Positions 3,459-31,383 are shown, counted from the stretch's first letter. The stretch: 32,924 bases of DNA from an uncultured Planctomycetaceae bacterium (GCA_964564965.1 CAZMDT010000001.1:13237-46160); one strand, 5' to 3'. The notes: generated by a model from the letters alone, not told the origin. Numbers and translations: made by a program.

Positions 3459-3483
3459 CGCCCTCCGCTCCCTTCCTCGCGCC

Positions 3484-5538: not shown

Positions 5539-5625
5539 TGTCGTTCCTCCAAGTACCTCCGCGTGTGTCCTCCAATGGAAAGATAGGATTCGCCGGGGCG
5601 TGCTGGCAAACTGGGGAAGTTAGAA

Positions 5626-5654
5626 AATATAGAGAAGCTGTTCCGTGGGCGCAA
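5626..5654 (-). promoter_or_regulatory. sigma70-like promoter for the FeeM-like/amidohydrolase/ligase/ThiF-like operon
   Basis: Minus strand reads TTGCGC (5654-5649), a 17-nt spacer, then TATATT (5631-5626). It lies in the only AT-rich patch of the 5539-5748 intergenic region, about 90 nt upstream of ATG 5538. Confidence 0.35.
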
Positions 5655-5707
5655 AAAGGGAGCCTGCCGGATGAGCGAGGGGTCGCCCCGCCCGCGCCGG
5701 CAGGCTC
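5653..5707 (-). terminator. Rho-independent-type terminator after the PEP-CTERM gene
   Basis: An 11-bp perfect inverted repeat, GAGCCTGCCGG (5660-5670) and CCGGCAGGCTC (5697-5707), encloses a 26-nt loop. The loop contains an inner GGGG-N3-CCCC hairpin. On the minus strand it is followed by CC then TTTTT (5657-5653). It lies 41 nt downstream of the stop at 5749. Confidence 0.5.
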
Positions 5708-5748
5708 GCGTCGATTACGTCATCGGCAGCGCCGGGCGCCGCCGGTCG

Positions 5749-6756: not shown

Positions 6757-6999
6757 GTCCGCTCCTTTCCTCTCGTTTTCCTCACTTGGCAAAGTTGGAC
6801 TCACAGACCAACTCAGAAACTCATTGTCAGATTGCGCGGGCTTTCAAGACGCCCGAGATGCAGCCGGACCCGTGAAGGGCAACCTTGTCCGGCGCAATAG
6901 ACGAGCACCTCCTCACCTCATGCCATCACCTCCTTCGATGCGGTTGGATCAGCCCGCGCACCGAGACTTTCGTACAGGCTCACTCACTGACAAAAGCGG

Positions 7000-7677
7000 T
7001 TATCGCGCGCCTTTGTCCCTCAACTTGCCGATGGTCCTCGCCAGAATGGCAAGTTCCATGCTCCATTTTCGACCCTGGATGTACTCCAGGTCTGCCTCCA
7101 GTTTGTGTCGGAACGCCTCCACGCTCGTGTCGTAGCCATTGCGGATCTGCGCCAGGCCCGTGATGCCCGGGCGAACCGCCAGCCGCTTGCGAACGTCGGG
7201 ATAGTGCTTCTCCAGCTCGTCGAGGATTTCCGGCCGCTCCGGCCGGGGCCCCACGAGCGACATCTCGCCCTTGATCACGTTGATGAGCTGCGGCAGCTCG
7301 TCGACGTGGCTGAGCCGCATCCACCGGCAGGCCGCGATGACTCGCGGGTCCTTGTGCCGGGCCCACGTGGCGCCGCTGCGCTTCTCGGCGTCCGTGTACA
7401 TGGTCCGGAGCTTGTACATGGTGAACGGCCGGCCGTTCCGACCGACCCGGACCTGCTTGAACAGCACCGGCCCGCGGCTGAACAGCTTGATCATCAGCAC
7501 GCAGAGGAGGATAACCGGCAGCGCCAGCACCAGCGCCACCAGCGCCAGCAGCGTGTCCACGACTTCCTTCGCCACGTCGAAGTACCGGCGGGCGAGATGG
7601 GACAGCAGACCGGCAAAGCCGCTGCCGACCGCCACCAAGGTTACCGGCTCAGGCATCTCCTGCTCCTCCTGCTCCAT
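7000..7677 (-). CDS. Polyprenyl-phosphate sugar phosphotransferase (bacterial sugar transferase family; EPS/O-antigen priming enzyme, WbaP/EpsL-like short form)
   Basis: ORF 7000..7677. One TM helix is followed by the conserved core: PVLFKQVRVGRNGRPFTMYKLRTM...DELPQLINVIKGEMSLVGPRPERP...RPGITGLAQI. An alternative start at ATG 7656 sits after a stronger AGGAGGAGCAGGAG tract. Confidence 0.9.
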   Translation of the reverse strand: MEQEEQEMPEPVTLVAVGSGFAGLLSHLARRYFDVAKEVVDTLLALVALVLALPVILLCVLMIKLFSRGPVLFKQVRVGRNGRPFTMYKLRTMYTDAEKRSGATWARHKDPRVIAACRWMRLSHVDELPQLINVIKGEMSLVGPRPERPEILDELEKHYPDVRKRLAVRPGITGLAQIRNGYDTSVEAFRHKLEADLEYIQGRKWSMELAILARTIGKLRDKGAR

Positions 7678-9533: not shown

Positions 9534-11099
9534 TTAGCGCCTTCGCCGCCGGATGTAGCCGCCGATCGCGGTGGCGCCCAGGAGCACCGCAAATGCGGAA
9601 ACGGGTTCGGGGATGACCGCCACGGCGTCGGTCTCCAGGACGTTGATCATGCCCATCCCGGCGAACCACATGTCGTCGGTGAACTGGGCGTTGGTGCCCG
9701 GCGCGCCGTACGTGCCGATCGGCTGCGGCTCGTCGTTGAAGAATAGCTTCAACACGTCGTCGATGCCCTGGTGGTTCAGATAGAGCAGCCCGTAGCCCGA
9801 GCCGTGCTCGAGCGTCAGGACAGCCGTGTCGGCCAGCGTGTCGTCGAAGTTGAGCTGGAGCGTCCCCAGCTTGCCGACCGTCACGTCGCCGGTGCCGAGG
9901 GCGGCGGGGTCGTTGGCGATGAGCGTGCCGGCCTCGACGATGGTGCCGCCGGAGTAGGACGAGGCGCGGCTGAACGTCTGCGTGCCGGTGCCGGTCTTGC
10001 GGATCGAGCCGACCTGCCCCGCCGCCTCGGCGATCTGGCGGTCGAACACGTACACCCCGCCGCCGGTCAGGTTCAACTCCGTGTCGATGAGGCCCACGCT
10101 GTCGCCGAGGATGATCGTGTCGCCGTTGCCGCCGCCGGAGGTGGTCTTCAGGCCGGCGCAGCTCGGCGTGGCCGTCAGGAAGTTCACCGTCGCCCGCCCG
10201 ACGTTCACCACGGCGTTCTGCACGGCGCCGTCATTCGTGATGTTGATCGTCGCGGCGGTGCCGCCCCTGTCCGAATAGAGCTCGCCCGTCCACAGCGGGT
10301 TGCTCCCGCTGATGGTCAGCGGCCCGTTGTCGTCCATGTTGAAGGTCAGCGCGCCCTCGATACTGCCGGCCAGCGTGGACCCCTCGGACTTCTGGGTCAC
10401 GCTCGATCCCGCCAGGCCCTTCAGCGTCCCGCCGGCGTTGAGCTCCAGCCTCCGGAAGCCCAGGAAGCTGTACGTGTCCAGGTCCAGCGTGGCGCCGTTC
10501 ATGACCTTGAACCGCCCGCAGTTGGTGTTGCTCGGCACGTCGCCGACCAGCTTGAACGTCCCCTCGTGGACGTTCAGCGCGTAGTACGAGTTGTTGTTGC
10601 CCGTGAACTTGCCGGCGAACTCAAGCGTCCCGCCGCCTTCCTTCCAGAACTCGTGCCCGCCGGCCACCGTCGGGCTCCACGCCAGCGTCGTGGCGGCGGC
10701 GACGTTGATGTGCGTCTCACCGTTGTCGCCCTTCAGCGTCACCGAGTCCATCTGCGCGCCCGTGACGTCGCTGATCGTCAGCTCCTTGTTGCCCTTGACC
10801 TTGATCGAGTAGCCCGTCACGTCGATCTTGAGCGCCCCGGCGGTGATGTCGGTGGTCACGTACACCTCTCCCGCGTTGCCGCCGAAGACGGCCGTGTCGG
10901 TCGCGTTCGTCGCGTTGTTCCACGCAACGAATCCTGCCCCGGTGTCCCAGTAGGCGTTGGAGGTGTTCCAGTCTCCCGCGCCGCCGGTGGGGGCGCCGGT
11001 GGTTCCATCGACGTCCCAGATGAGGTCGCTGCCGAGGCTCATCCCGGCCGTCGCCAGAATCATCGCCAGCACCGCGAGCAGTTGTCTCTGCCTTGTCAT
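9534..11099 (-). CDS. PEP-CTERM-anchored protein with autotransporter-associated beta-strand (PATR-type) repeats
   Basis: ORF 9534..11222, trimmed to ATG 11099 (MTRQRQLLAVLAMILATAGMSLG, a signal peptide), which is preceded by AGAGGAGAG. It carries repeats of the G(T/G)LxLxG...GGTxVxxGTL type, for example IRKTGTGTQTFSRASSYSGGTIVEAGTLIAND. The C-terminus is VIPEPVSAFAVLLGATAIGGYIRRRRR. Confidence 0.85.
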   Translation of the reverse strand: MTRQRQLLAVLAMILATAGMSLGSDLIWDVDGTTGAPTGGAGDWNTSNAYWDTGAGFVAWNNATNATDTAVFGGNAGEVYVTTDITAGALKIDVTGYSIKVKGNKELTISDVTGAQMDSVTLKGDNGETHINVAAATTLAWSPTVAGGHEFWKEGGGTLEFAGKFTGNNNSYYALNVHEGTFKLVGDVPSNTNCGRFKVMNGATLDLDTYSFLGFRRLELNAGGTLKGLAGSSVTQKSEGSTLAGSIEGALTFNMDDNGPLTISGSNPLWTGELYSDRGGTAATINITNDGAVQNAVVNVGRATVNFLTATPSCAGLKTTSGGGNGDTIILGDSVGLIDTELNLTGGGVYVFDRQIAEAAGQVGSIRKTGTGTQTFSRASSYSGGTIVEAGTLIANDPAALGTGDVTVGKLGTLQLNFDDTLADTAVLTLEHGSGYGLLYLNHQGIDDVLKLFFNDEPQPIGTYGAPGTNAQFTDDMWFAGMGMINVLETDAVAVIPEPVSAFAVLLGATAIGGYIRRRRR

Positions 11100-11326
11100 G
11101 ACTTCTCTCCTCTGAGTTTGCCTTCTCGCTTGTTCATCTCCACGCCTCCACGCCGGCGGCTTCGCCGCGGGCGCGCAGACCCATACCGCCCTGTACCCAT
11201 GGTCCCTACGCTGGAGTTGCACCGCTCCTTGTTCAAGAGCCTCTCAGATACTTCGGGTTCCCTATGCCTGCCGTTATTTACCCTACATGGTCAGGCCGTC
11301 CGGGCGAACCGGAACTGCCAAGCAGG

Positions 11327-11367: not shown

Positions 11368-11396
11368 AAAAAAGCGGGAAAGGTGGTTCCCCCCGC
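11368..11396 (-). terminator. Rho-independent-type terminator closing the SecA-like operon
   Basis: Minus strand reads GCGGGGGGAA-CCACC-TTTCCCGC (a GC stem with G-U pairs), followed directly by TTTTTT (11373-11368). It begins 13 nt after the TAG stop at 11409-11411. Confidence 0.55.
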
Positions 11397-11408: not shown

Positions 11409-13445
11409 CTATCGCTCGGCGCCGGCGAAGCCGAGGTACTCGTCCAGCCAGTCGTCGGTGCGGAGGACGCCCTTCCGCTGGCGGAGCGCCATCCGCTCGG
11501 CGTGGTGCTGGGCGAGACCGAACACCCGCCGCGTCAGCAGCGACGACAGCTCGCGCTCCGTCCGCCCGAACCGCCGCCTCAGCGCCGCCGACAGGTGCGG
11601 GGCGTGCCGCACGACCAGCTCGTCGGCGAGGCTGACGATGGCCTGGCAGCTTCCGGGGTCGCCCTGGCGTCCGGCCCGGCCGAAAAGCTGCCGGTCGATC
11701 CGCCCCGCCTCGTGGCGCTCGGTGGCGATGACGTGCAGCCCGCCGAGGTCGGCCACGCCGCGCCCGAGCTTGATGTCGGTGCCGCGCCCGGCCATGTTGG
11801 TGGCCACGGTGATCCGTCCCTGCTGCCCGGCGGCGGCGACGATCTGGGCCTCCTCGGCGTGGCGGACGGCGTTGAGCACCTGGTGCTCCAGCTCGCGCTC
11901 GGCGAGCAGGCGGCTGAGGTGCTCGCTGGCGCGGACGCTGCGGGTGCCGACGAGCACGGGCCGGCCGGTGGCGTGGAGGCGGGCGATCTCCTCGACGACG
12001 GCGCGCCACTTGGGCGCTTCGGAGGCGAAGACGCGGTCCGGGCGTCGCTCGCGGACGCACGGGCGGTTGGTGGGCACCACCACGACCGGCAGGCGGTAGA
12101 TCTGCCAGAACTCGCGCCGGGCCTCGGCGGCGGTGCCCGTCATGCCCGCCAGCCGGCGGTACAAGCGGAAGAACCGCTGGAAGCTCACCCGGGCGTACGT
12201 GTCCTTCGGCGGGTTGACGGCAATGCCTTCCTTGGCCTCGACGGCCTGGTGGAGCCCGTCGCGCCATTCGCGGTCCGGCATCAGCCGACCCGTGAACTCG
12301 TCCACGATGCACACCGCCTCCTCGTGAAGCACGTACTGCTTGTCGCGGAGGTAGAACTCATCGGCGGTGAGGGCCTGGACGACAAGCTCCTCGCCTCGCC
12401 GGGCCCCGCCCCAGACGCCGCCCAGCCCGCCCGACATCTCGGCGATGCGCCGCTGGCCCGCGGGCGTCAGCTCCACCTCGCGGTAGCGGGCGTTCACGCG
12501 GTAGTGTGCGCCGGGCGCCAGCTCGTTCGCCACGGCGGCGGCCTGCTCGAACGCCGCCACCTGCTCGGGGTTCGGGGCGTCGCCCGAGATGATCAGCGGC
12601 GTGACGGCCTCGTCGATGAGGATCGAGTCGGCCTCGTCCACGATGGCGTACTGCAGGCCGCGCTGCACCAGCCGCCCCACCCCGCCCCGCGCGCCCTCGG
12701 CCAGGCCCGCCAGCAGCACCTCCGGCAGCGACCGCATCCGCCCCAGCGCCAGGCGGTCGCGCAGAAAGTCCGCCGTCACCTCCTTGTTGGTGCAGTAGGT
12801 GATGTCCGCCTGGTAGGCCTCGCGGCGCTGGGCGGGCTCCATGCCCTGCTCGAGGTGCGCCACCCGCAGGCCGCAAAAGCGGTAGATGGGGCGCATCCAC
12901 TCGGCGTCGCGCCGGGCGAGGTAGTCGTTGAAGGTGATGACGTGGCACCCGCGCCCGCGCCAGCCGGCCACCGCCGCCGGGAGCGTGGCGGTGAGGGTCT
13001 TGCCCTCGCCGGTGGCCATTTCGGCGATGGCGCCGGCGTGGAGGGCGAAGGCGCCGGCGACCTGGACGGGGAAGTGGGTCTCGCCGATGCGCCGGCGGGC
13101 GACCTCGCGGACGAGGGCGAAGGCGCGGTCGAGGTCGTCCGCGCGGTCGCGTCCGCGGCGGAAGCGGGCGCGGAACGCCTCGGCCTGGCCGCGCAGGGCG
13201 GCCTCGCCCATGTCGCGAAAGGCCCTCTCCAGCGCGAGCACGCGCCGGGCCCGGCGGAGGAAGCTCCCGGTGCGGACGGACAGGCGCTTGGCGGCGCCGG
13301 CGGCGCTCAGCCAGAGAGCGTCCAGGCCTTTGGGCAGCTCATCGCGCGCTCGCGGCTCGGCGAGCATCCGCCAGGTTGCGCTGGCCACGGCCGTCACGAA
13401 CGGCTGAACCTCCGCAGCAGCAGTTGCCGCAGGCTGCGCCACCAC
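11409..13445 (-). CDS. SecA-like ATPase, C-terminally truncated paralogue (NBD1 - preprotein cross-linking domain - NBD2 - stub of helical scaffold)
   Basis: ORF 11409..13445. It shows strong collinear identity to SecA motifs: Walker A (AEMATGEGKTLTATLPA), VITFNDYLARRDAEWMRPIY, ADITYCTN, DEAD-like (IVDEADSILIDEAVTPLIISG), a PPXD segment, WRDGLHQAVEAKEGI, AGMTGTA, PVLVGT, ATNMAGRGTDIKLG and TERHEAGRIDRQLFGRAGRQGDPG. The protein ends about 70 aa after NBD2. By comparison with E. coli SecA (recalled sequence), the wing domain, two-helix finger and C-terminal tail are absent. The start is GTG 13445 (a 52-nt overlap with the upstream gene) or ATG 13367. Confidence 0.85.
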   Translation of the reverse strand: MVAQPAATAAAEVQPFVTAVASATWRMLAEPRARDELPKGLDALWLSAAGAAKRLSVRTGSFLRRARRVLALERAFRDMGEAALRGQAEAFRARFRRGRDRADDLDRAFALVREVARRRIGETHFPVQVAGAFALHAGAIAEMATGEGKTLTATLPAAVAGWRGRGCHVITFNDYLARRDAEWMRPIYRFCGLRVAHLEQGMEPAQRREAYQADITYCTNKEVTADFLRDRLALGRMRSLPEVLLAGLAEGARGGVGRLVQRGLQYAIVDEADSILIDEAVTPLIISGDAPNPEQVAAFEQAAAVANELAPGAHYRVNARYREVELTPAGQRRIAEMSGGLGGVWGGARRGEELVVQALTADEFYLRDKQYVLHEEAVCIVDEFTGRLMPDREWRDGLHQAVEAKEGIAVNPPKDTYARVSFQRFFRLYRRLAGMTGTAAEARREFWQIYRLPVVVVPTNRPCVRERRPDRVFASEAPKWRAVVEEIARLHATGRPVLVGTRSVRASEHLSRLLAERELEHQVLNAVRHAEEAQIVAAAGQQGRITVATNMAGRGTDIKLGRGVADLGGLHVIATERHEAGRIDRQLFGRAGRQGDPGSCQAIVSLADELVVRHAPHLSAALRRRFGRTERELSSLLTRRVFGLAQHHAERMALRQRKGVLRTDDWLDEYLGFAGAER

Positions 13446-15592
13446 TGCACGGCGAGCGGCTTGGCCGGCAGCTCGAAGCGGGCGATGACGCGCTGCCCGG
13501 GGCGCAGGGCCACGCCGGGGTCGGGGCGGACGCGGACCTGGAACACCTGCTCCGTCGGGCGGGCGCCGGAGGGGTCGGTGGGATCGACGGCGATGGGCCC
13601 GCCCGCGCGATACCCCAGCGCCGCGGAGGGGAGCTTCTTCTCCCCGACGCGGAGGGTGGGCAGCCGCTCGCCCGTGAGGTACTCCCCGGGCCGCCCGCGG
13701 ACGCGCAGCGAGAGGCGCCGGCGCGACTCGTCGATCAGCCGCTTGTCGTCCTGCCCGACGACGGCGCGAACCATGAGGTTACCGAACGCCAGCGGCGCCA
13801 CGAAGCCGATGGGCTGCCCCCGGCGGACGTACACGCCGCGCATCCGCTCGATGTCGGGGGCGATCCACACGCCGGGGGCCGGCGCCGGCACCCGCAGCCG
13901 CTCCTGACGCTGCTCGAACCGCTCGATCTCCCGCTCCAGCCGGGCGATCTCGCGGGCCTTCTGCTGGGCGGCGGTGATGTCCCGCTGCGGACCCGGCGCC
14001 TGGAGGAGCCGCTTCTCGCGCTCGAGCTTGCTCAGGTCCGCCCGGCGGCGCTCGATCTCGGAGGCCAGCTCGGGGTTCGCCATCACCACCACGGGGGGCC
14101 CGGCGGGGCGGCAGTCGGCCCCGGGGGGCAGGAACTCCGTGATGAAGCCGTCCTCGGCGGCGAACACGCCGGCCATCTCGACCGGCTCCACGACGCCCTC
14201 GACGCGGACGCGGTCGGGCGCGCTGACGGCCCCGACGGCGGCGACGGCGGCCGCCACGACCACCAGCACGGTGGCCGCCGCGCGCCCCCGCACGCGGGCC
14301 AGCTCGTTGCTGGTGGCGAGGTAGCGCACGAACTTCACGAGCGGCACGCAGATCCACGTGAACGCCGCCACCGCGGCGAACGCCACCGCCACCGCCGCCA
14401 GCGGCTTCGGCAGCCGGTTCGTCAGGAACAGCAGGATCATCGCGAAGATGAAGAACCGGTAGAGCGTCGAGGCGATGCCGTAGAAGACGAACCAGAACGG
14501 CTCGCCGCGGGTGTTGGCGGGGTTGCGCGCCTGCCGGACGCTCCAGACGTAGCGGCGGACGAGGTAATAGAGGTACTGCCGGCTGCGCTGAGCGAGGTTG
14601 GGAATCTCCAGCAGGTCGGACAGGATGTAGTACGCGTCGTAGCGGAGCAGCGGGTTGCCGTTGAACAGCACCGAGGAGACGCTCGCCACGAACATGATGT
14701 TGTAGCAGATGGCCTTGAGCGTGCCGGGCTCGGCACTGGCCCAGACGACGGCCGCCACGGCGGCGATGGCCAGCTCGACGATCATCCCCGCCGCCCCCAC
14801 GATCACCCGCCGCCACTTGCCCCGGAACGCCCACGCGCTGGAGGCGTCCACGTACGGCAGCGGGGTGAACACGAGGAACATCACGCCCATGGCGTGGACC
14901 TCCCCGCCCTGCCCCGCCTGCCGGCCGAAACGCTTCACCGCGAACGCGTGACCGAACTCGTGGCACACCTTCGCGATCACCAGGCTCAGGTAGAACAGCG
15001 GCAGGGCCGAGGGGTCGAGGATGTTCTCGGCGGCGCTGACGAGTTCTTCGCCGCGCCCGACGACGCTGTAGATGCCCGCCGCCAGCATCCCCAGCCACAG
15101 CACCAGCCCCGGCCAGGAGAACACCCAGCCGAAGACCGCCACCCACCGGTCGAGGAACTTATCGGGGTCCAGCAGGGGCAGGCGGATGAACAGCAGGTTC
15201 ATCACGGTGCCCTGGATCTCGCGGATGCGGCGCTTGCGGTAGCGCTTGAGCAGGCCCTCGGCGTCGGGGGGCAGGTCGGCCTGGAGAAGGTTCGAGGTGT
15301 ACAGCTGCCCGAGCAGTTGGATGGCCTCGCCCTGGGTGGGGGCGGCGTCGCCGAGCTGCTCGTTGCAGATGCCCCAGACGTCGGCGACGGTCTTCCGCCC
15401 GTCGAGCATCGCCACGAAGCGGTACGCCGGCTCGTTCAGGCGGAAGTAATCGTTGGTCGAGGGGTCCTCCAGCACGTGCCACATCTGCCCGCGGAAGTGC
15501 TGCCGGCTGACCTGCACGGTCGATCGCAGGCGCGGCTGGAGGCCCGCCACCCGGTACCACGACTCGCTGAATGTCGGGCGGTCAACCGGCAC
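13394..15592 (-). CDS. Three-part fusion: PqqD/RRE-like N-domain, site-2-protease (peptidase M50) membrane core, C-terminal HlyD-like periplasmic adaptor
   Basis: ORF 13394..15592 with a GTG start. The N-terminus (YFRLNEPAYRFVAMLDGRKTVADVWGICNEQLGDAAPTQGEAIQLLGQLYTSNLL) resembles the PqqD peptide-binding fold. The polytopic core has HExxH (KVCHEFGHAF) and the second S2P motif NxxPxxxxD (FNGNPLLRYDAYY). After a last TM helix there is a coiled coil (ELASEIERRRADLSKLEREKRLL...IARLEREIERFEQRQERL) and beta-barrel-like segments, as in HlyD adaptors. Confidence 0.8.
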   Translation of the reverse strand: MPVDRPTFSESWYRVAGLQPRLRSTVQVSRQHFRGQMWHVLEDPSTNDYFRLNEPAYRFVAMLDGRKTVADVWGICNEQLGDAAPTQGEAIQLLGQLYTSNLLQADLPPDAEGLLKRYRKRRIREIQGTVMNLLFIRLPLLDPDKFLDRWVAVFGWVFSWPGLVLWLGMLAAGIYSVVGRGEELVSAAENILDPSALPLFYLSLVIAKVCHEFGHAFAVKRFGRQAGQGGEVHAMGVMFLVFTPLPYVDASSAWAFRGKWRRVIVGAAGMIVELAIAAVAAVVWASAEPGTLKAICYNIMFVASVSSVLFNGNPLLRYDAYYILSDLLEIPNLAQRSRQYLYYLVRRYVWSVRQARNPANTRGEPFWFVFYGIASTLYRFFIFAMILLFLTNRLPKPLAAVAVAFAAVAAFTWICVPLVKFVRYLATSNELARVRGRAAATVLVVVAAAVAAVGAVSAPDRVRVEGVVEPVEMAGVFAAEDGFITEFLPPGADCRPAGPPVVVMANPELASEIERRRADLSKLEREKRLLQAPGPQRDITAAQQKAREIARLEREIERFEQRQERLRVPAPAPGVWIAPDIERMRGVYVRRGQPIGFVAPLAFGNLMVRAVVGQDDKRLIDESRRRLSLRVRGRPGEYLTGERLPTLRVGEKKLPSAALGYRAGGPIAVDPTDPSGARPTEQVFQVRVRPDPGVALRPGQRVIARFELPAKPLAVQWWRSLRQLLLRRFSRS

Positions 15593-15604
15593 GGCGTGTT
15601 GCCC

Positions 15605-17491
15605 TCACCACCACAGCTTCATGCGGAGCCAGTTCACCAGCCGGCGCGACCAGATCCACGCGTACCGCCGCCGGTCGATGTGGATTCGGGCGGCGCCCTT
15701 CATGCCGGGGCTCATCCAGTCGGCCGAGGTCTCCAGCCGGACGCGAACGCGAAAGACGTTCTGCTGCTGCTCCACCTCGGCGACCGGGCTGATCCACTCC
15801 ACGGTGAACGGGATGCGCCGCTGGGTGTAGGCGGCGAAGGTCAGCTCGCCCGGCTGCCCGAGGCGGACCTCGGCGATCTGGTCCTCGGGGACGAACACCT
15901 CGGCCCGCAGGGCGGCCAGTTCGGCGACCTCGAACAGCGCCTTGCCCTTCTCCACCGCCGTGCCCACCTGGCGCTTCAGGCTCTCGCTGACGACCGTGCC
16001 GGCGAACGGGGCGGTGAGGCGCGATTCGGCGACCTTCCTCTTCAGCGGCTCGATCTCGCCCTGGCGGACCTCCTCGCCCCGCTGCTCAGAGATGGCGGCC
16101 TCGGCGTACTTGCCGTCACGCCGGTAGACGGACGCCTCCATGAGGAAGGCGGTGCGTTTGGTGTTGGCGGCCTCGAGGGCGGCTTCGAGGTCCTCGGTGT
16201 CCAGCTTCCCCAGCAGTTGCCCGGCGGCGACGGCGTCGTCCGGCTCGACCTTCACCTCGGACAGCACGCCCGCGAACGGCGCCGAGACAAACTCCCGCCG
16301 CCGCGACTCCAGCACGAACGTGCCGCCGGCGTTGTAGTCGCCCCGGGCGAATACCAGGAACACCACGCACGCGAACACGACCAGGGCGATGAGCTTGGCC
16401 CACGTGTGCTTGGCGCCGAGGAGGAAGGCCACCCCGCGCCGGGCGGCGGCCGCCGCCTTCGCGCCGAACCACCGGTCCTGGCGGTGCAGGTTCTCCAGCC
16501 GCGCCGTGCACTGTTCGCCCGTCAGCCGGTGCGTCTCCACCTCCTCCGCGGCGAACGGCTCCTCCGCGCGCCGCTCGGCGGTGAGCACGGCCACCGGCTC
16601 GCCCCCCTGCCGCAGGGGCAGGCTCACCACGGCCGACGGACCGTGCCGACGCGCCAGGTCCTGCGCCGCGCGGTTCACGATCGGCGCCTCCGGCGGCGAG
16701 GGATGGACGATCTCGGCGTCCTGGTCGAGGCACTCCTCCATGGCGGCCTCGATGTCCTGGACGAGCTTCATCTTGCGGCTGAACTTTTCGGTGTGGCTAA
16801 GGGCCTTGAGCTGGACGTACCGCCCCTTGAGGAAGCCGAGGGCGGCGCGTTCGCACTTCCAGCGGGCGGCGATTTCGTTGCAGCAGGCCATCGCCGCGCC
16901 GGCGAACCGCTGCTGCTCGTTGAGGGCGGCGACGACCTCCATGGCCCTTCGCAGGCGGGCGAGGTCCCCCTGGCGCTGCTGGAGCGACAGGCGCATCTCG
17001 TACAGGCTCAGCAGGCTGATGCTCAGCTCCAGGCGCTCGCGGGCGGCAACGAGGGCGGCGCGGCTGGGCGTGGCGACGTGGAACACCGCCAGCCCGCGCG
17101 TGCCCTGGTCGTCGCGCACCGGGATGAAGATGAGGCTGCGCCGGGCGGGCTGGCCGTAGAGGTCGTCGGCGGCGTGGAGGGCCTGCACCGTCGTGCCGTC
17201 GGCGGCCAACGCCTTCGGGGCGAGCGGCACCGCCTGCGCCAGCCAGGCCGGGGCCGTGCCGCCCTCGGGAATCGCCGGAGACGCCGCCAGCACCTCCGCC
17301 CGTCCGCCGGCGCCGCCGCGCAGAAACGCCCCCCCGGACGCCGACGCCAGCCGGCACTGCACCGCCAGCAGCTCCGCCAGGAACGCCTGCGGCGGGCCCT
17401 CGAAACGGCTCAGGTGCTCCACCAGCTCCGCCGCCGTTCCCGTTGGCGGCGGCACCTCCCGCTGGCCGATCTGTTCGCCGCGCACGGCCAT
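15605..17491 (-). CDS. Tandem GAF-like cytoplasmic domains, TM anchor and HlyD-family periplasmic adaptor
   Basis: ORF 15605..17491. The N-terminal approx. 330 aa form two GAF-like modules (pattern recognition only). These are followed by one TM helix (WAKLIALVVFACVVFLVFA), then lipoyl/barrel-sandwich adaptor motifs (FVSAPFAGVLSEVKVEPDDAVAAGQLLGKLD ... LTAPFAGTVVSESLKRQVGTAVEKGKALFEVAE). Confidence 0.75.
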   Translation of the reverse strand: MAVRGEQIGQREVPPPTGTAAELVEHLSRFEGPPQAFLAELLAVQCRLASASGGAFLRGGAGGRAEVLAASPAIPEGGTAPAWLAQAVPLAPKALAADGTTVQALHAADDLYGQPARRSLIFIPVRDDQGTRGLAVFHVATPSRAALVAARERLELSISLLSLYEMRLSLQQRQGDLARLRRAMEVVAALNEQQRFAGAAMACCNEIAARWKCERAALGFLKGRYVQLKALSHTEKFSRKMKLVQDIEAAMEECLDQDAEIVHPSPPEAPIVNRAAQDLARRHGPSAVVSLPLRQGGEPVAVLTAERRAEEPFAAEEVETHRLTGEQCTARLENLHRQDRWFGAKAAAAARRGVAFLLGAKHTWAKLIALVVFACVVFLVFARGDYNAGGTFVLESRRREFVSAPFAGVLSEVKVEPDDAVAAGQLLGKLDTEDLEAALEAANTKRTAFLMEASVYRRDGKYAEAAISEQRGEEVRQGEIEPLKRKVAESRLTAPFAGTVVSESLKRQVGTAVEKGKALFEVAELAALRAEVFVPEDQIAEVRLGQPGELTFAAYTQRRIPFTVEWISPVAEVEQQQNVFRVRVRLETSADWMSPGMKGAARIHIDRRRYAWIWSRRLVNWLRMKLWW

Positions 17492-17526
17492 GCGCTTCTA
17501 CCCATCCCGCCCCGGACGAGGAGGCA

Positions 17527-17895
17527 CTACAGGTTGTCCTTGCGTCGCTTGGCTACGTCCAGCTCCAGCTCGCCGAACTGGTCCTCGTGCTGGCGGATGA
17601 CCCGCGACAGCGTGATGGCCAGCCGCTTGGCGGAGTGGTAGTTGAGGATGATGCGCTCGTTGACCTGGAAGATGATCTCCGGCTGCCCCTGCTGCTGGGT
17701 AGCGGGATTGACCACGTTCAGCCCGAAGTCGATCATGACCTCCTCGGCGGTGGCGTTGGTGCGGAAGGCGTTGGCGTAGCTGCTGCGCATGTTCCGCTCG
17801 TCCATGCGGATGCGGACCTGCTGCTGCCCGGTCTGCTGGCGCGCCTGCTGGTCGATGGGATGCTCCTCGGGGGTCTTGGCGTCGTCTTTGGCCAT
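17527..17895 (-). CDS. DUF3467-family small protein with a Gln-rich N-terminus
   Basis: ORF 17527..17895. ATG 17895 is preceded by AGGGAG, which overlaps the stop codon of the upstream HlyD gene. The core SSYANAFRTNATAEEVMIDFGLNV...NERIILNYHSAKRLAITLSRVIRQHEDQFGEL matches the DUF3467 pattern as I recall it (YAN..........E..lDFg ... a.rL...L...i..yE..FG). It has no signal peptide and no TM helix. Confidence 0.65.
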   Translation of the reverse strand: MAKDDAKTPEEHPIDQQARQQTGQQQVRIRMDERNMRSSYANAFRTNATAEEVMIDFGLNVVNPATQQQGQPEIIFQVNERIILNYHSAKRLAITLSRVIRQHEDQFGELELDVAKRRKDNL

Positions 17896-17905
17896 CAGTG
17901 GCTCC

Positions 17906-18808
17906 CTATCTGTGGGTGTCGGTTTCGCCCGGCCTTGGCGCCGCCGGGGCCTCAGGAAAGCTCACGCGCACCCGCTGCCCGGCCCGTCGGCCGGCGGGGT
18001 TCGGCAGCTCCACGCGGACCGTCAGCGTCTCGCTGGCGGCGTCGGCCACCGAGGCCACGAACGTGATCGTCCCCGTCACCGTCTCGCCCGTTCGGGCGAA
18101 CGTCACGTCGGCCTTGCCGCCCGATGCCAGCGCGCCCGCCTGCACGCCCGGCACCGGCACGTCGATCCGCAACGGGTCGGTCTTCACGATCCGGATGAGC
18201 TTCTCCAGGGCGTCGACGGACTCCCCCGCCTCGACCACGACACGCTCCACCATGCCGTCGATCGGGCTGAGCAGCTTCATCCGCGCGACCTGAAGCTCCG
18301 CCTCGCGCAGCTTCAGCCCGTCCTGCTCGTGTTGCAGCTTCGCCAGCTCCAGCGAAAGCTCCGCGATCGTCACGTCCAGCTGCGCGTGCTCCACCTCCGC
18401 CTGCGTGGAGGCGCCGCTCCGGGCGGCGTCCTCGATCTTCTTCAGGTCCAGCTTCTTCTGCGCGAGCTGCGCCTCGGCGGCGCGGACGCGCGTCCGGTCG
18501 GTCGCCTGGGTGCGGAGCTGCTCGAGCTGCACGCGTTCGGCCGAATCGTCCTGGCTGATCAGCAGCTCCCCCGCCTTCACCTGCTGACCGTCCTTCACCA
18601 GGACCTTGGCGATCTGCCCCGGGCGGACGAAGGAGAGGGTGACGTCCTTGCTGGGGATGGTGACGGCCTCAATGCCTTCGGCGGCGCAAGTTGCGGCCGC
18701 GCACAGCAACACCGCCGCTGTTGCCGCCGGCCGGGCGCCCCGCGCCGCCGCGGACCCCACGCGCCGCCACAAGGCGCTCGGGGCCCGCTGGTGACTTGCA
18801 TCGCTCAT
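17906..18808 (-). CDS. HlyD-family periplasmic adaptor (membrane fusion protein)
   Basis: ORF 17906..18889, trimmed to ATG 18808 (MSDASHQRAP...), which is preceded by GAGGTG with a 6-nt spacer. The longer version would overlap the predicted promoter. It has a signal anchor (AATAAVLLCAAATCAA), a lipoyl-like motif (VRPGQIAKVLVKDGQQVKAGELLISQDD), a coiled coil, and LLSPIDGMVERVVVEAGESV. Confidence 0.8.
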   Translation of the reverse strand: MSDASHQRAPSALWRRVGSAAARGARPAATAAVLLCAAATCAAEGIEAVTIPSKDVTLSFVRPGQIAKVLVKDGQQVKAGELLISQDDSAERVQLEQLRTQATDRTRVRAAEAQLAQKKLDLKKIEDAARSGASTQAEVEHAQLDVTIAELSLELAKLQHEQDGLKLREAELQVARMKLLSPIDGMVERVVVEAGESVDALEKLIRIVKTDPLRIDVPVPGVQAGALASGGKADVTFARTGETVTGTITFVASVADAASETLTVRVELPNPAGRRAGQRVRVSFPEAPAAPRPGETDTHR

Positions 18809-18861
18809 GGGCTTCACCTCAGTCAAGACCGCTTCCGCGCAAGAGAACGCCCCGACGCCGT

Positions 18862-18889
18862 ATTGTAACTCGACAGTTTCTCCCGGCAA
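18862..18889 (-). promoter_or_regulatory. sigma70-like promoter of the HlyD/DUF3467/GAF-HlyD/M50-HlyD/SecA-like operon
   Basis: Minus strand reads TTGCCG (18889-18884), a 16-nt spacer, then TACAAT (18867-18862). It lies about 55 nt upstream of ATG 18808. Confidence 0.45.
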
Positions 18890-19110: not shown

Positions 19111-19139
19111 TTGACGAAATGCCGGATCGACGGTATGAT
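19111..19139 (+). promoter_or_regulatory. sigma70-like promoter of the LacI-family regulator operon
   Basis: TTGACG (19111-19116), a 17-nt spacer, then TATGAT (19134-19139). It sits immediately upstream of the operator palindromes and 92 nt before ATG 19231. Confidence 0.55.
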
Positions 19140-19176: not shown

Positions 19177-19230
19177 ATCATCTTGAGCGAGTAGTCGTTG
19201 TCCCAGCGATCTGGAGCCAACCGGCAGACC

Positions 19231-20262
19231 ATGGCCGTCACGTTGAAGGACGTCGGAGAGAAGCTGGGCCTCAGCGCCGTGACCGTCTCCTGCGCGCTGC
19301 GAAACACCGGCGACGTGGCCGAGCCGACCCGCCGCCGCGTGCTGCGGGCCGCCCGCGAGCTCGGCTACCGCCCCAACGCCTTCGCCCGCTCGGTTCGCAC
19401 CGGGCGGTTCGGCAACGTCGCGCTGACCATGAGCATGGAGGCCACATGGAGCCAGACGCCCGAGCCGCTGCTCCGTGGCATCGAGCGGGCGCTGGCCGAG
19501 CGGGACATGCTGCTGACGATCGCCGCGCTGCCGGACGAGCAGCTCACCGACGAGGGGTTCGTGCCGAAGATGCTTCGGGAATGGATGGCCGACGGGCTGC
19601 TGATCAACTACAACGCGCGGATCCCCGCGCGGATGGTGGAGCTGATCGAGCAGTACGAGCTGCCGTCGGTGTGGATCAACTCGAAACACACGGGCGACTG
19701 CGTGTACCCCGACGACTACGCCGCCGGGCGCGAGGCCGCCTGCCGACTGCTGGCGCTGGGGCACCGGCGGATCGCTTTCGTCGATTTCTCCAGTCCCCCG
19801 CCGGACCGCAAGAGCCACTACAGCCAGATCGACCGGCAGCAGGGGTACCGCGACGCGCTGGCCGAGGCGGGGCTCGCCGGGCGGCGCGTGGGCGACCGCC
19901 AGAGCCTCGGCCGGGGGGAGATCGTCTCCTCCCTGCGCGCGATGCTCGCCGAGCCCCGCCGCCCCACCGCCGTGGTCACCTACAACATGCCCGAGGCGGA
20001 GGCGGCGTTCATGGCCGCCGGGCTCGCCGGCCTGGAGGTCCCCCGCGACCTGTCGATCATCACCTGCTGCATCGGCCGGGCCGAGGGGCTGGGGATGATC
20101 TTCGCCAACATGGTGATCCCCGAGCAGCAGCTCGGCAAGCAGGCCGTGACGCAGCTTCTCACCAAGATCGACGACCCGTCGCGGCAGACACCCGCGACGG
20201 CCGTTCCGTTCACGTTCGATGAAGGGCAGTCGCTTGGCCGCCCTTCCGGAGATGACAGCTAA
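19231..20262 (+). CDS. LacI/GalR-family transcriptional regulator
   Basis: ORF 19198..20262 (TTG start), trimmed to ATG 19231. This places the HTH (VTLKDVGEKLGLSAVTVSCALRN) at the N-terminus, as in the family. It is followed by ELGYRPNAFARS and a periplasmic-binding-protein-like sugar-binding core. Confidence 0.9.
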   Translation: MAVTLKDVGEKLGLSAVTVSCALRNTGDVAEPTRRRVLRAARELGYRPNAFARSVRTGRFGNVALTMSMEATWSQTPEPLLRGIERALAERDMLLTIAALPDEQLTDEGFVPKMLREWMADGLLINYNARIPARMVELIEQYELPSVWINSKHTGDCVYPDDYAAGREAACRLLALGHRRIAFVDFSSPPPDRKSHYSQIDRQQGYRDALAEAGLAGRRVGDRQSLGRGEIVSSLRAMLAEPRRPTAVVTYNMPEAEAAFMAAGLAGLEVPRDLSIITCCIGRAEGLGMIFANMVIPEQQLGKQAVTQLLTKIDDPSRQTPATAVPFTFDEGQSLGRPSGDDS

Positions 20263-21206: not shown

Positions 21207-22016
21207 ATGCACGACACCCGACGTCCACATTGCGGCGGCGGCCCCGGCCCCCTTCGTGCGACGACTGCCTTCACGTTGATCGAGCTGCTGGTCGTGGTCG
21301 CCATCATCGCGCTGCTGGTGACGATCCTGTCGCCCTCGCTGAACGAGGCGAAGACGCTCGCCCGCCGCGCCATCTGCGGCAGCAACTTCCATCAGCTTCA
21401 CGCGGCTTGGCTGGTCTACGCGGCCGACAGCCGGGACAGGCTGCCGATCATGCCGCACAACTCCGGGCCGCTGGACCCGTTCAACACGCGGGTGATCAGC
21501 GTCACCGACAGCTACGCTGACCAGTACTGGGGCGGCGACTGGAAGATCGCGGAGTTCATCCGCCCCTACGCGGTGCCGGCGCTGTGGAACTGCCCCGAGG
21601 TGAACGCCCCGCCGATCGACGACCCCCGCAACACGCGCGCCATCGCCTGCTACGGGCCGCTGTGCTACCTGCCGGGCAACTACCATCCGCTGTTCGACCA
21701 CGCCGCGGACGAGTTCCACCCGCAGTCCATCGCCGAGGCCGACGGCGACGACATCCTCATGCAGGACGCCGTGGTGGTGGACCTCGACTCCGGCGCGGTG
21801 CGGTTCAACCACGGCAGGGGCCCGCGCGTGCAGAGCCGCCCCGACGACAACCCCAGCGCGATGCACCTCGGCTCCGAGGACTACCGGGACGCGGCCGGAT
21901 CGCATATACTGCGGTTCAGCGGCAGCGTGCAGTTCCGCCCCGCCTCCGCGCTGGCAGACCAGGGCTACACGAGCCACCCCTGGACGACGTGGCGGTTCTA
22001 CTCCGTCAGCGACTGA
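21207..22016 (+). CDS. Prepilin-type N-terminal cleavage/methylation domain protein (DUF1559-like pseudopilin family)
   Basis: ORF 21207..22016. The N-terminus is ..RATTAFTLIELLVVVAIIALLVTILSPSLNEAKTLARRAICGSNFHQL (class III signal and conserved Glu5). The C-terminus GSHILRFSGSVQF resembles the H..N..F.DGSV end of the family. Confidence 0.85.
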   Translation: MHDTRRPHCGGGPGPLRATTAFTLIELLVVVAIIALLVTILSPSLNEAKTLARRAICGSNFHQLHAAWLVYAADSRDRLPIMPHNSGPLDPFNTRVISVTDSYADQYWGGDWKIAEFIRPYAVPALWNCPEVNAPPIDDPRNTRAIACYGPLCYLPGNYHPLFDHAADEFHPQSIAEADGDDILMQDAVVVDLDSGAVRFNHGRGPRVQSRPDDNPSAMHLGSEDYRDAAGSHILRFSGSVQFRPASALADQGYTSHPWTTWRFYSVSD

Positions 22017-22069
22017 GGCGGGCGCGTGGCGGCCGGGCCGTCCGCGCGGCCCGCTGCCGCACAGGCCCG

Positions 22070-23059
22070 ATGAAACACGACCATCGCAACGGAACCGCCT
22101 CGCCTTGCTCGCCTGCCGGCAGAGGGCGCCCGGTCCTGCACGGTTTCACCTTGATCGAACTGCTGGTCGTCATCGCGATCATCGCGCTGCTGCTGACGCT
22201 GCTGATGCCCTCGCTGAACCGGGCGAGGGAGCTCGCACGCCGGGCGGTGTGCGCGACGAACCTGCACACCTGGGCGGTGGCGGCCCACCAGTTCGCCTCC
22301 GAGCACGACGGGCTGCCGCCGTCGGCGTACCACGAGCCCACCCAGGGACGGGGCCTGCAACTGGAGTGCGTCCGCCTCGGGCGCGAGGACCTCCCGGCGG
22401 GGATCGTCCCGGGCTATCCCATCGTCGGCAACGGGCAGTGGAAGAGCTGGGGCTACCCGACCAGCATCGACGAGAAGTGGGATGAGTTCGAGCGCGTCGA
22501 GAAGCACGGCGGGCAGGAGGCCTGGCGGGCGTTCGGCACCAGTTGGGACAGCTTCCGCCTGTACGGGCTCACCAAAGGCCACTGGCGATGCCCGAGTTCG
22601 CCCCGCGAGCCGCTCTGCGAAAATGACGGTTCGGCCGCGGAACCCAACGGCTCGAACGTGAGGACCAGCTACCTGTACGTGGCCGGTCTCGGCATGAACA
22701 GCCCGGACGACAACGGCCGGGAGGTCGCCGGCGGGTGCTGGAACGCCGGGACCCCCAACAACGGCTACCGCTGGCTGGTGGACCCGGAGGTCCCTCCGGC
22801 GGCGTCATCCTACACCGACGAGACGCCCGCCCGGACGGTGATCGCCGCGGACCGGCTGCGGCGCTACAACAGCGCCACCGGAAAGACCGAGTGGAACCAC
22901 GACGCCCCCGACGGCAAGCTCCCCGGGTGGCAGGGCATCGCCTGGGGCGACGGGCACGTCGAGCCGCGCGACGACGGGTACTACAGCGTCCTCCCGGACG
23001 AGGGCACCTATGCCCTCTGGGCGTCCGGCGCCGCGGTGTACTACTGGTGGGAGCCGTAA
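22070..23059 (+). CDS. Prepilin-type N-terminal cleavage/methylation domain protein (DUF1559-like), paralogue 2
   Basis: ORF 21584..23059, trimmed to ATG 22070 (MKHDHRNG...VLHGFTLIELLVVIAIIALLLTLLMPSLNRARELARRAVCATNLH). It has the C-terminal WGDGHV motif. Confidence 0.85.
   Translation: MKHDHRNGTASPCSPAGRGRPVLHGFTLIELLVVIAIIALLLTLLMPSLNRARELARRAVCATNLHTWAVAAHQFASEHDGLPPSAYHEPTQGRGLQLECVRLGREDLPAGIVPGYPIVGNGQWKSWGYPTSIDEKWDEFERVEKHGGQEAWRAFGTSWDSFRLYGLTKGHWRCPSSPREPLCENDGSAAEPNGSNVRTSYLYVAGLGMNSPDDNGREVAGGCWNAGTPNNGYRWLVDPEVPPAASSYTDETPARTVIAADRLRRYNSATGKTEWNHDAPDGKLPGWQGIAWGDGHVEPRDDGYYSVLPDEGTYALWASGAAVYYWWEP
22178..22216 (+). repeat. 39-nt segment identical to 23148-23186 (prepilin N-terminal helix coding region)
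   Basis: ATCATCGCGCTGCTGCTGACGCTGCTGATGCCCTCGCTG occurs identically in paralogues 2 and 3. The flanks are near-identical. Confidence 0.8.
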
Positions 23060-23096
23060 GCCGCGACCGTGCCGACGGCCGGAAAGGGCCGTAACG

Positions 23097-24029
23097 ATGC
23101 ACAGACGAAACGCCTTTACGCTGATCGAACTCCTCGTGGTCATCGCCATCATCGCGCTGCTGCTGACGCTGCTGATGCCCTCGCTGGAGCGCGGGAAGGA
23201 GCTGGCGCGTCAGGCCGTCTGCCGGTCCAACCTCCACAACTTCGGCACCGTCGGCATCTTCTTCTCCGGCGAGCACGACGGCCTGCTGCCGATGGCGTAC
23301 CGCTGGAACCAGTGGGGGATGCGCCTGTACTCGGCGGTCCGCGTGCACCAGCAGGCCGGCGGGCAGGAGTGGTACCTGTACGGCAACTCCGAGCACTACC
23401 CCAACACCGTCGAGGAGTTCACGCGGGTCGGGCCGGCGAGGCAGAAGGACAAGTACTCCTGGTCGGAGCCGATCTGGCGGCGGTTCGGCACGACGCTGCG
23501 GACCTACCAGAAGTACGGGCTGGCCGACGGCATGATGGTCTGCCCCAGCGGGGCGGGCGACCGCATCCTGGACCAGACCGGCGGGGACGGCGGCGGGGCG
23601 ATGCCGGGCGAGACCGCCACTTCCGGCGGGGCCGCCTACGCCGGCTGGCGGCTCTACGCCTCGTACCTCGTGGTGTCGGGGCTGGAGGGCCGGGACCAGT
23701 ACGACCGCCCGGGGGGCATGCCCGGGGCCGACTGGCGATACCGCTGGAACGATCCGGCCTTCGGCGTGCCCGCGCCGGCGGTCGCCGCCGACGACGAGAA
23801 CGCCGCGGAGCGGCTGATGGCGTGCGACCGCGTGTACGTGCCGGGCTGGCGCGGGGGCCCGCCGGAGTGGAACCACGCGGGCCCCCACGACGACCGCCCC
23901 GGCTTCCAGGGGATGCTCTACGGCGACGGGCACGTTGGAGCCAACTCGGAGGGCTTCTACCGCGAGCCCGTCAGCGCCGACTTCGCCTCCGTGCTGGATT
24001 GCGACGAGGGCTTCACCTGGACCCGCTAG
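23097..24029 (+). CDS. Prepilin-type N-terminal cleavage/methylation domain protein (DUF1559-like), paralogue 3
   Basis: ORF 23010..24029, trimmed to ATG 23097 (MHRRNAFTLIELLVVIAIIALLLTLLMPSLERGKELARQAVCRSNLH). It has the C-terminal YGDGHV motif. Confidence 0.85.
   Translation: MHRRNAFTLIELLVVIAIIALLLTLLMPSLERGKELARQAVCRSNLHNFGTVGIFFSGEHDGLLPMAYRWNQWGMRLYSAVRVHQQAGGQEWYLYGNSEHYPNTVEEFTRVGPARQKDKYSWSEPIWRRFGTTLRTYQKYGLADGMMVCPSGAGDRILDQTGGDGGGAMPGETATSGGAAYAGWRLYASYLVVSGLEGRDQYDRPGGMPGADWRYRWNDPAFGVPAPAVAADDENAAERLMACDRVYVPGWRGGPPEWNHAGPHDDRPGFQGMLYGDGHVGANSEGFYREPVSADFASVLDCDEGFTWTR
23148..23186 (+). repeat. Second copy of the 39-nt identical segment (see 22178-22216)
   Basis: Direct comparison of the two gene starts. 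Confidence 0.8.
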
Positions 24030-31297: not shown

Positions 31298-31383
31298 GAG
31301 CGATCTCCTTCGGGCCGCGGCGCCAGGGGCGGCTCCGGCGGGCTGGCTCGCCCGGACGGGCTCCGCGGCGGTCCGCCAAGATG

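Follow-up and report, generated by a model that had tools for sequence, protein, structure and literature searches.

An operon encoding periplasmic adaptors, an M50-type membrane protein and a truncated SecA in an uncultured planctomycete suggests an export apparatus for LEPR-XLL proteins

We analyzed a 32,924-nt stretch of DNA (the window) from an uncultured Planctomycetaceae bacterium (GCA_964564965.1, CAZMDT010000001.1:13237-46160). It has a G+C content of ~70%, and its closest relatives were found in Planctomycetota, mainly among metagenome-assembled genomes of Phycisphaerae. Our subject is an operon at 11409–18889, whose five minus-strand open reading frames (ORFs) encode, in order, a small HlyD-type adaptor (HlyD1), a DUF3467 protein, a GAF-adaptor fusion, a PqqD-like/M50-like/adaptor fusion (hereafter the M50 fusion) and a short SecA-like ATPase. 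Judged from sequence comparisons, this operon and its neighbors in related genomes suggest export of giant surface proteins with an N-terminal LEPR-XLL tag. All five ORFs were of coding type, with G+C at third codon positions of 0.89–0.97 and strong coding periodicity, and the ORFs and the intergenic gaps of 10, 35 and 12 nt given in an initial annotation of the window were confirmed. A sigma-70-like promoter-like site (TTGCCG-N16-TACAAT, 18862–18889, minus strand) was found by consensus scan with 9 of 12 matches, a consensus match only; the scan returned 4 promoter-like sites, compared with 0.2 expected in shuffles. An intrinsic-terminator-like hairpin followed by T6 (11368–11396, minus strand; 8-bp stem with 5 GC pairs) was located 12 nt past the SecA-like stop codon. 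Both elements had been named in the initial annotation and were recovered as promoter-like and terminator-like, and a single packed transcription unit is supported by these sequence features.

Two gene starts could be refined. The longest HlyD1 ORF opens at TTG 18889, which is the first base of the −35 hexamer of the promoter-like site. Because this codon falls in the hexamer, HlyD1 probably starts at ATG 18808, which has GAGG just 5' of it and lies 54 nt downstream of the promoter-like site. For the junction between the last two genes, either a 52-nt overlap or a 26-nt gap had been proposed, and neither was retained. For the SecA-like gene, the most likely start is GTG 13397, which overlaps the TGA of the M50 fusion as GTGA; this codon was favored by the overlap itself, by a GGAGG located 11 nt upstream, by the fact that most homologues align from residue 17 (numbered from GTG 13445), and by the 662-aa length of the homologue called in related locus L002. 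The overlap also suggests translational coupling of the two genes. Domain searches of the ORFs detected no ABC, RND, MFS or TolC genes and no OEP homologue anywhere in the window, and none of the five proteins had an NCBIfam model of its own. Domain and topology analysis bore out that the shortened SecA is the sole NTPase of the operon, and the M50-type core fused to an adaptor its sole polytopic membrane module.

The SecA-like protein (11409–13397, minus strand; 662 aa from GTG 13397, maximal ORF 11409–13445) matched SecA_DEAD (2.8e-103), SecA_PP_bind (2e-24) and P-loop_SecA (5.5e-58), and no match was obtained to SecA_SW, the wing/scaffold family. Its residues 66–668 (numbered from GTG 13445) aligned to residues 23–604 of Bacillus subtilis SecA, after which the protein ends. 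It keeps both nucleotide-binding domains (NBD1 and NBD2), the preprotein cross-linking domain and most of the long scaffold helix, and is devoid of the wing domain, the two-helix finger and the C-terminal tail. The motifs are intact (Walker A GEGKT, DEAD, NMAGRGTD and GRAGRQG). Scores against the SecA2 equivalogs TIGR03714, TIGR04221, TIGR04397 and NF012136 were 514, 475, 570 and 443 bits (cut-offs 930, 725, 1085 and 1100, respectively), and those against housekeeping models TIGR00963 and PRK12904 were 634 and 647 bits (cut-offs 800 and 814), with the matched positions of the housekeeping models ending near 491–606 of ~790–814.

The M50 fusion (13394–15592, minus strand; 732 aa) stands out as the signature inner-membrane component on the basis of hidden Markov model (HMM) matches, its AlphaFold2 model and its conservation. 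At its N-terminus, a PqqD-like domain, resembling the recognition elements of ribosomally synthesized and post-translationally modified peptide (RiPP) systems, occupies residues ~20–105 (15278–15535, minus strand) and matched Pfam PqqD over residues 39–103 (24.5 bits, over the cut-off of 23.4). It is followed by an M50/site-2-protease-like membrane core (residues ~141–456; 14225–15172, minus strand), which was defined from motifs, hydrophobic segments and the model, with ~7 transmembrane helices. HEFGH (residues 211–215) and NGNPLLRYD (residues 311–319) each fall within a predicted helix, and the model also has a re-entrant beta hairpin. The C-terminal domain (residues ~457–712; 13457–14224, minus strand) was not called by Pfam. 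In the AlphaFold2 model, which was built from 72 homologues and had a predicted local distance difference test score (pLDDT) of 83.5, it shows lipoyl-like strands, an alpha-hairpin (residues 507–564) and a beta-barrel after the last transmembrane helix, and a Foldseek search of the PDB with the model found MexA, AcrA, MacA and ZneB (E values of 1e-10 to 1e-8). Because of these structural matches to MexA, AcrA and MacA, the count of three adaptors in the initial annotation is correct on the modeled fold, the third one being part of the M50 fusion. HMM searches likewise confirmed its other assignments (SecA, M50, HlyD, GAF and DUF3467), the M50 match being weak. A profile search of the PDB with the M50 fusion returned EmrA only (E value of 0.003) and no site-2 protease. 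Hydrophobicity and the model place the PqqD-like domain in the cytoplasm and the adaptor domain in the periplasm, a predicted topology that fits an export apparatus.

Conservation within the M50 fusion was uneven. H211, E212, N311, P314 and D319 were invariant in 142 of 142 sequences, and H215 was present in 141 of them. Across 141 diverse full-length relatives the PqqD-like domain was the best-conserved region, with a mean identity of 48% compared with 29% for the adaptor domain. Invariant protease residues and a highly conserved N-terminal domain make both proteolysis and this domain look central to the function of the protein. The family is also large: a single search gave scores for more than 6,600 relatives, 4,068 representatives of 50%-identity clusters were found at E ≤ 1e-30, and the full-length architecture was kept down to 34% identity.

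Of the remaining proteins, HlyD1 (17906–18808, minus strand; 300 aa, the maximal ORF reaching TTG 18889) is a small periplasmic adaptor, or membrane fusion protein, that matched Pfam HlyD_D23, HlyD_3 and Biotin_lipoyl_2 as well as NCBIfam RND_mfp (127.8 bits, cut-off 94.9). A single N-terminal hydrophobic segment (residues 28–51) corresponds to an anchor or signal. The GAF-adaptor fusion (15605–17491, minus strand; 628 aa) was recognized by Pfam GAF, GAF_2, HlyD_3 and HlyD_D23. It has one hydrophobic segment only (residues 360–388), and its layout is a cytoplasmic GAF region, one transmembrane helix (residues ~365–383) and then a periplasmic adaptor domain. The DUF3467 protein (17527–17895, minus strand; 122 aa) is soluble, matched PF11950 (1.9e-19) and was 64–78% identical to its relatives. 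Its AlphaFold2 model was poor (pLDDT 58.5), and Foldseek with this poor model found nothing in the PDB at E ≤ 0.001. A SecB-like chaperone was considered: a profile search of PDB sequences gave chance matches only, and hhalign against Escherichia coli SecB, for which an approximate sequence was used, gave a probability of 0.2%.

Conservation of this gene set was examined in related genomes. A scan with one narrow pattern, on one genome per species, yielded 399 species, and 80 loci (Planctomycetota species) were fetched; denominators for synteny are the loci with enough sequence, and recurrence of flanking families was scored in 78 related flanks. We found that the GAF-adaptor gene directly preceded the M50 fusion in every one of 63 loci, order and strand being conserved, and that the SecA-like gene adjoined the M50 fusion on the downstream side in 62 of 64. 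Two Phycisphaerae loci were exceptions to this otherwise constant synteny: no SecA-like gene was present past the M50 fusion in 10 kb (L055, 12632–22631) and 2.6 kb (L035, 2505–5080) of DNA free of N runs. Of the 59 loci for which sufficient upstream DNA was available, 45 had DUF3467. The same genes were found on plasmids of Alphaproteobacteria, at 35–50% identity.

Related loci had two layouts. In the first, shared with the window, both HlyD1 and DUF3467 are found upstream, HlyD1 being ahead of DUF3467; in the second, usually without DUF3467, HlyD1 is paired with a gene for a TolC-like OEP lipoprotein that is convergent to the SecA-like gene. TolC-like OEP genes adjoined the module in 21 of the 80 loci, and also in Methylosinus and Kosakonia, whereas ABC and RND families were not recurrent in the 78 flanks. 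The co-localization noted in the window is conserved and no ABC or RND pump recurred beyond it, but the absence of an outer-membrane factor applies to the window only, TolC being a frequent but not constant neighbor. None of the outcomes that the initial annotation had named as refuting it was observed. In one locus labeled as Deltaproteobacteria (L077, 14172–16808; 51% identity to the window), an OmpA domain is part of the TolC-like protein, after which comes a divergent DUF3467 gene (35% identity) on the downstream side of the SecA-like gene. This arrangement indicates that DUF3467 stays linked to the module even when gene order has changed. Several flanking families that recurred in eight loci were rejected as partners, as they came from closely related genomes and were unrelated to transport. 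One of these families has HEAT, PD40 and HZS_alpha domains, and the others match NADH-dehydrogenase/ferredoxin genes called in L002.

Another type of neighbor was of greater interest. A LEPR-XLL motif was located 10–50 residues from the start of 19 ORFs in 18 Planctomycetota loci, compared with 2.85 strict-motif matches in residue shuffles, and in 17 of these 18 loci the LEPR-XLL ORF was the gene directly flanking the module. Five of seven neighbors tested reached the cut-off of NCBIfam NF012209/LEPR-8K, a model named “LEPR-XLL domain-containing protein”. The consensus was P-x-[FL]-E-x-L-E-P-R-[LV]-L-L-[SN]-A-D after an often basic stretch, and the leaders were devoid of a Sec-type hydrophobic core. 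Within the DNA that was fetched, the lengths of these proteins spanned a few hundred to more than 2,600 aa, and their domains included Ig-like, fn3, CARDB, SdrD, RTX and serralysin-C, with RTX repeats and a serralysin C-terminal domain occurring together in one of them.

The motif was also found in large proteins adjoining the module on four plasmids of Alpha- and Gammaproteobacteria. For example, a Mesorhizobium ciceri plasmid encodes a ~10,500-aa Ig-like protein and after it DUF3467, HlyD1, the GAF-adaptor, the M50 fusion and the SecA-like protein, and a plasmid of Methylosinus sp. C49 encodes a ~8,850-aa LamG protein (motif LEPRVLLNA) and after it DUF3467, the GAF-adaptor, the M50 fusion, the SecA-like protein, HlyD1 and TolC. 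The N-termini of the giants on Alphaproteobacterial plasmids carried FEALEPRLLLSA (Mesorhizobium), FDTLEPRVLLNA and VEQLEPRLLLAA. An Alisedimentitalea plasmid carries a ~8,150-aa “calcium-binding protein” followed by adaptor, M50 and SecA genes, and Sinorhizobium chiapasense has an ORF of more than 6,000 aa followed by the GAF-adaptor, the M50 fusion, SapC, the SecA-like gene and HlyD1. More distant relatives occur on a Kosakonia cowanii plasmid (L094, 1–13232; a 2,347-aa Ig-like protein with LEPRMLF, TolC, two adaptors and the M50 fusion) and in Azospirillum thermophilum (L093, 1–11025; a VCBS/cadherin protein, then an adaptor and the M50 fusion), both of which are without the SecA-like gene and DUF3467.

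Several side observations were made on these loci. The annotated start of the Alisedimentitalea scapharcae giant (L091, 2–1678, minus strand; WP_343211605.1) is too far downstream, and its in-frame upstream extension holds VEQLEPRLLLAADF, a LEPR-XLL motif. A “prepilin peptidase” of Methylosinus sp. C49 on pMSC49a (L085, 11204–13120; WP_244635385.1) is a mis-annotated short SecA that is 49% identical to the window protein over residues 68–675. A SapC-family gene recurs with the module in Alphaproteobacteria, beside the giant in Alisedimentitalea (L091, 1858–2655) and between the M50 fusion and the SecA-like gene in S. chiapasense (L092, 22260–22967), and was not found in the Planctomycetota loci or the window. 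The Kosakonia plasmid also carries three 225-aa “tail fiber protein” genes, and its SecA-less variant had no DNA-level match in complete E. coli genomes.

The initial annotation knew of no experimentally characterized system with this parts list. We likewise found no experimental work on the module in the literature, but the locus itself had been described in silico, in several phyla, by Kamneva, Poudel and Ward in 2015 (PLoS One, PMC4452313). Besides this paper and a preprint on LEPRxLL giants cited below, the literature retrieved was of marginal or no relevance to the module. These authors reported “secondary SecA_DEAD proteins” that had lost the wing/scaffold domain, in one Chlorobi species among others, encoded alongside three clusters of proteins with HlyD domains, weak similarity to Peptidase_M50 and GAF domains, and sometimes alongside OEP; they suggested that the locus is secretion-related, with SecA providing ATPase activity and the M50 protein the membrane part. 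The window locus agrees with theirs in the SecA_DEAD protein without SecA_SW, the protein combining a weak M50 match with an HlyD-type domain, the protein with GAF and HlyD/biotin-lipoyl domains and the separate HlyD protein. It differs in that the optional OEP gene is absent and DUF3467 is added, and the main text of PMC4452313 mentions neither DUF3467 nor a cargo, a PqqD-like domain or LEPR-XLL neighbors. The window locus is a Phycisphaerae-type member of this locus, and its parts list has already been published as a prediction.

Two preprints bear on the giants. In Chlorobium chlorochromatii, proteins of 36,806 and 20,647 aa are reported to have N-terminal LEPRxLL domains, to be exported with “no known signal” and to be passed to a symbiotic partner; according to the same preprint they are flanked by SapC (preceding) and TolC genes, and a horizontally acquired secA is co-expressed with them (bioRxiv 10.64898/2026.03.19.712371). 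In Omnitrophota and Actinobacteriota, SecA_DEAD/PP_bind modules without scaffold/wing are embedded inside giant proteins, and a part in the export of the giant itself was suggested for them (bioRxiv 10.1101/2023.11.21.568195). There the motor lies within the giant and near type-II-like genes, whereas here it is a free 662-aa protein. A link between LEPR-XLL proteins and the M50-adaptor/SecA-like module was not found in these papers or in literature searches with the motif, and the association of the module with LEPR-XLL giants and with DUF3467 may be new.

On balance we consider it somewhat probable that the operon encodes a trans-envelope, type-I-like secretion apparatus for LEPR-XLL proteins, in which the M50-adaptor fusion and a soluble, truncated SecA replace the ABC transporter. 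Its cargo would be the large to giant, repeat-rich, adhesin- or RTX-like LEPR-XLL proteins that are associated with the module in genomes. By analogy with RiPP recognition elements, the PqqD-like domain may bind the LEPR-XLL leader, and the SecA-like ATPase would feed the unfolded chain into the membrane complex. The HExxH/NxxPxxxxD site, whose conservation points to catalytic competence, could cleave the leader at the membrane. The M50-fused and GAF-fused adaptors and HlyD1 would form a heteromeric duct onto a TolC-like channel, which is encoded beside the operon in many relatives and would be encoded elsewhere in this genome. More speculatively, the cytoplasmic GAF region could gate the system in response to a small ligand, and DUF3467 could serve as a cytoplasmic chaperone or targeting factor. 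The processing and export function proposed in the initial annotation fits these data, but a large or giant LEPR-XLL protein is a likelier cargo than a small peptide.

Similarity to type I secretion (HlyBD-TolC, or LapBCE for LapA) would lie in the combination of a periplasmic adaptor with a TolC-type channel, the gene for which is absent from the window and adjoins the module in many relatives, and in a proposed dedication to very large, repeat-rich, partly RTX-type proteins encoded beside the system. In contrast to type I systems, the ATPase is SecA-like, and an ABC transporter is absent from the operon and the window and was not recurrent in the 78 flanks. The adaptors are of three kinds, two being parts of larger fusions, and LEPR-XLL, the putative signal, is located at the N-terminus and not at the C-terminus.

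The presence of a clear SecA homologue with an intact preprotein-binding clamp raises the question of whether the inner membrane is instead crossed through SecYEG, with the short SecA working as a SecA2-type motor and the adaptors, M50 protein and TolC serving a periplasm-to-outside step or quality control. Mycobacterial SecA2 is without part of the wing domain and yet uses SecY. Such a two-step route could also accommodate the SecA-less variants, which might rely on housekeeping SecA. Besides, the clade of secondary SecA proteins is placed next to actinobacterial SecA2 in the tree of PMC4452313. As with the accessory SecA2 proteins of mycobacteria and the SecA2/SecY2 systems of Gram-positive bacteria, the module would offer a second, shortened SecA paralogue for a subset of substrates. 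However, the window protein is truncated far more deeply, ending within the long scaffold helix, so that the SecY-contacting two-helix finger and the second half of the scaffold domain are missing, and it scored under every SecA2 equivalog cut-off. SecY2 and Asp genes were absent from the window and not recurrent in related flanks, and the module belongs to diderm bacteria. Moreover, the GTGA overlap and the adjacency to the M50 fusion point to a dedicated partner, and the lack of a Sec-type hydrophobic core in LEPR-XLL leaders also argues against this route, which we regard as unlikely.

The PqqD-like domain invites a different interpretation, in which it binds the leader of a small peptide, the M50 core removes that leader and the adaptors export the mature peptide. 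For residues 20–424 of the M50 fusion the best sequence-family matches were indeed NCBIfam daptide_HExxH (NF041824, 1.5e-43) and YydH/LiaK (NF058609, 1.3e-6), RiPP leader peptidases in which a PqqD-like domain likewise precedes an HExxH membrane protease, and relatives of the fusion are named “PqqD family peptide modification chaperone” by NCBI and “putative peptide zinc metalloprotease” by JGI. The PqqD match itself is over its cut-off. These NCBIfam scores, however, were far under the cut-offs (149 vs 300 and 28 vs 225 bits, respectively), the window protein differs in its C-terminal periplasmic adaptor, and no precursor peptide, radical-SAM or other tailoring enzyme was recurrent in the 78 flanks, where the recurrent neighbors were large LEPR-XLL proteins and TolC. 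A short peptide would also need no SecA-type unfoldase or translocase. A RiPP-type function therefore appears quite improbable. Peptidase-containing ABC exporters (C39, for double-glycine leaders) offer a parallel to the secretion apparatus that we favor, as leader recognition, proteolysis and export are there combined in one inner-membrane component that works with an adaptor. They differ in having a cytoplasmic C39 cysteine protease, as opposed to an intramembrane M50-type zinc enzyme, the proposed PqqD-like leader binding, a separate SecA-like energy module and cargo of thousands of residues.

A signaling device, a possibility mentioned already in the initial annotation, would have the GAF region sense a ligand, the M50 core cleave a membrane-anchored regulator, the SecA-like protein act as an unfoldase and the adaptors as scaffolds. 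This would fit the classic sensor role of GAF domains, the invariant protease residues and regulated intramembrane proteolysis, the activity for which family M50 is best known. On the other hand, no anti-sigma, sigma or other regulator gene was recurrent beside the module, and relatives do not share the LacI-type gene that lies upstream of the operon in the window. The recurrent TolC-like genes, together with three full adaptor domains that have alpha-hairpins, argue for a duct, and the recurrent giant neighbors for a cargo, so that we give this idea little credence, if anything marginally less than the RiPP-type one. Finally, efflux of small molecules or lipids by an odd tripartite pump, with the M50-like part as a degenerate transporter and the SecA-like protein as a regulatory ATPase, is very improbable: the adaptors do score best against RND- and MFS-type adaptor families and their structure matches are drug-efflux adaptors, but the invariant catalytic metalloprotease residues indicate that the M50 domain is not degenerate, the preprotein clamp of SecA and a peptide-binding PqqD-like domain are kept, and the neighbors are giant proteins.

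Several findings weigh against the proposed export of LEPR-XLL proteins. No LEPR-XLL ORF and no TolC-like gene lie within the 32.9-kb window, and it is assumed that the cargo and channel genes of this genome are located elsewhere. An adjacent LEPR ORF was seen in just 18 of 80 loci, or 6 of 21 with long flanks, and these counts refer to the DNA flanking the module. Kosakonia and Azospirillum keep the large protein, the adaptors and the M50 fusion without the SecA-like gene, which shows that the motor is not universally required. With peptidase family M50 the fusion shares HExxH in one helix and NxxPxxxxD in another, but its score against Peptidase_M50 (PF02163) was 19.4 bits, under the gathering cut-off of 27.2. 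The Foldseek matches were dominated by adaptors and did not confirm the M50 fold, and the sub-cut-off daptide_HExxH match was its best among sequence families. To our knowledge, formation of a protein-conducting channel has not been demonstrated for any M50 protease. The contacts of the PqqD-like domain with the leader, and of the SecA-like protein with the membrane complex, are putative. The role suggested for DUF3467 found no backing in structure prediction or fold searches.

A more far-reaching version of the LEPR-XLL export reading, which we consider possible but somewhat less than probable, is that the module represents a distinct, widespread and unnamed pathway of diderm bacteria dedicated to LEPR-XLL proteins, among them the largest known from bacteria, with a leader read by the PqqD-like domain, an M50-adaptor portal, a SecYEG-independent SecA paralogue and a heteromeric duct of three adaptors and TolC. 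If true, it would provide a new inner-membrane route in which a channel of the ABC, RND, MFS or SecY type is not evident, a second cellular role for the SecA motor and for site-2-type proteases, and a defined secretion signal for LEPR-XLL proteins. Adhesin- or toxin-like LEPR-XLL giants are annotated across many phyla, and the link to the module gives a testable answer to how they leave the cell. As the module is located on plasmids of culturable Alpha- and Gammaproteobacteria, direct testing is possible.

Other genes of the window were also inspected. Just downstream of the operon lies a gene (9534–11222, minus strand) for a 562-aa protein with a PATR repeat of the autotransporter type, in which a PEP-CTERM-like tail (VIPEP, hydrophobic residues and RRRRR) is combined with a Sec-type signal peptide. 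The gene is served by a strong, near-consensus promoter-like site (TTGACA-N16-TATATT, 11354–11327) after the operon terminator. The gene occupies the position of the LEPR-XLL gene in relatives L019, L048, L053 and L059. This protein and a 1,177-aa protein (27878–31411) were both considered as cargo and rejected, as each has an ordinary Sec-type signal peptide and no LEPR motif. A co-directional run on the minus strand (1108–7677) encodes a ThiF-family protein, a 554-aa protein, an Amidohydro_2 protein, a FeeM-like N-acyl amino acid synthase, a 351-aa protein and a sugar transferase of the Bac_transf family; taken with the PEP-CTERM-like protein, this run resembles an exosortase or exopolysaccharide neighborhood. 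On the other side, a LacI-family regulator (19198–20262, plus strand) with a promoter-like site at 19111–19139 is divergent from the operon and is probably not dedicated to it, because it is absent at this position in the related loci inspected. Methylation motifs (N_methyl) were found at the N-terminus in three further genes (21207–24029, plus strand), of which one also has DUF1559. The pseudopilin-like family to which they belong is hugely expanded in Planctomycetota, and the genes support the placement of the window in this phylum.

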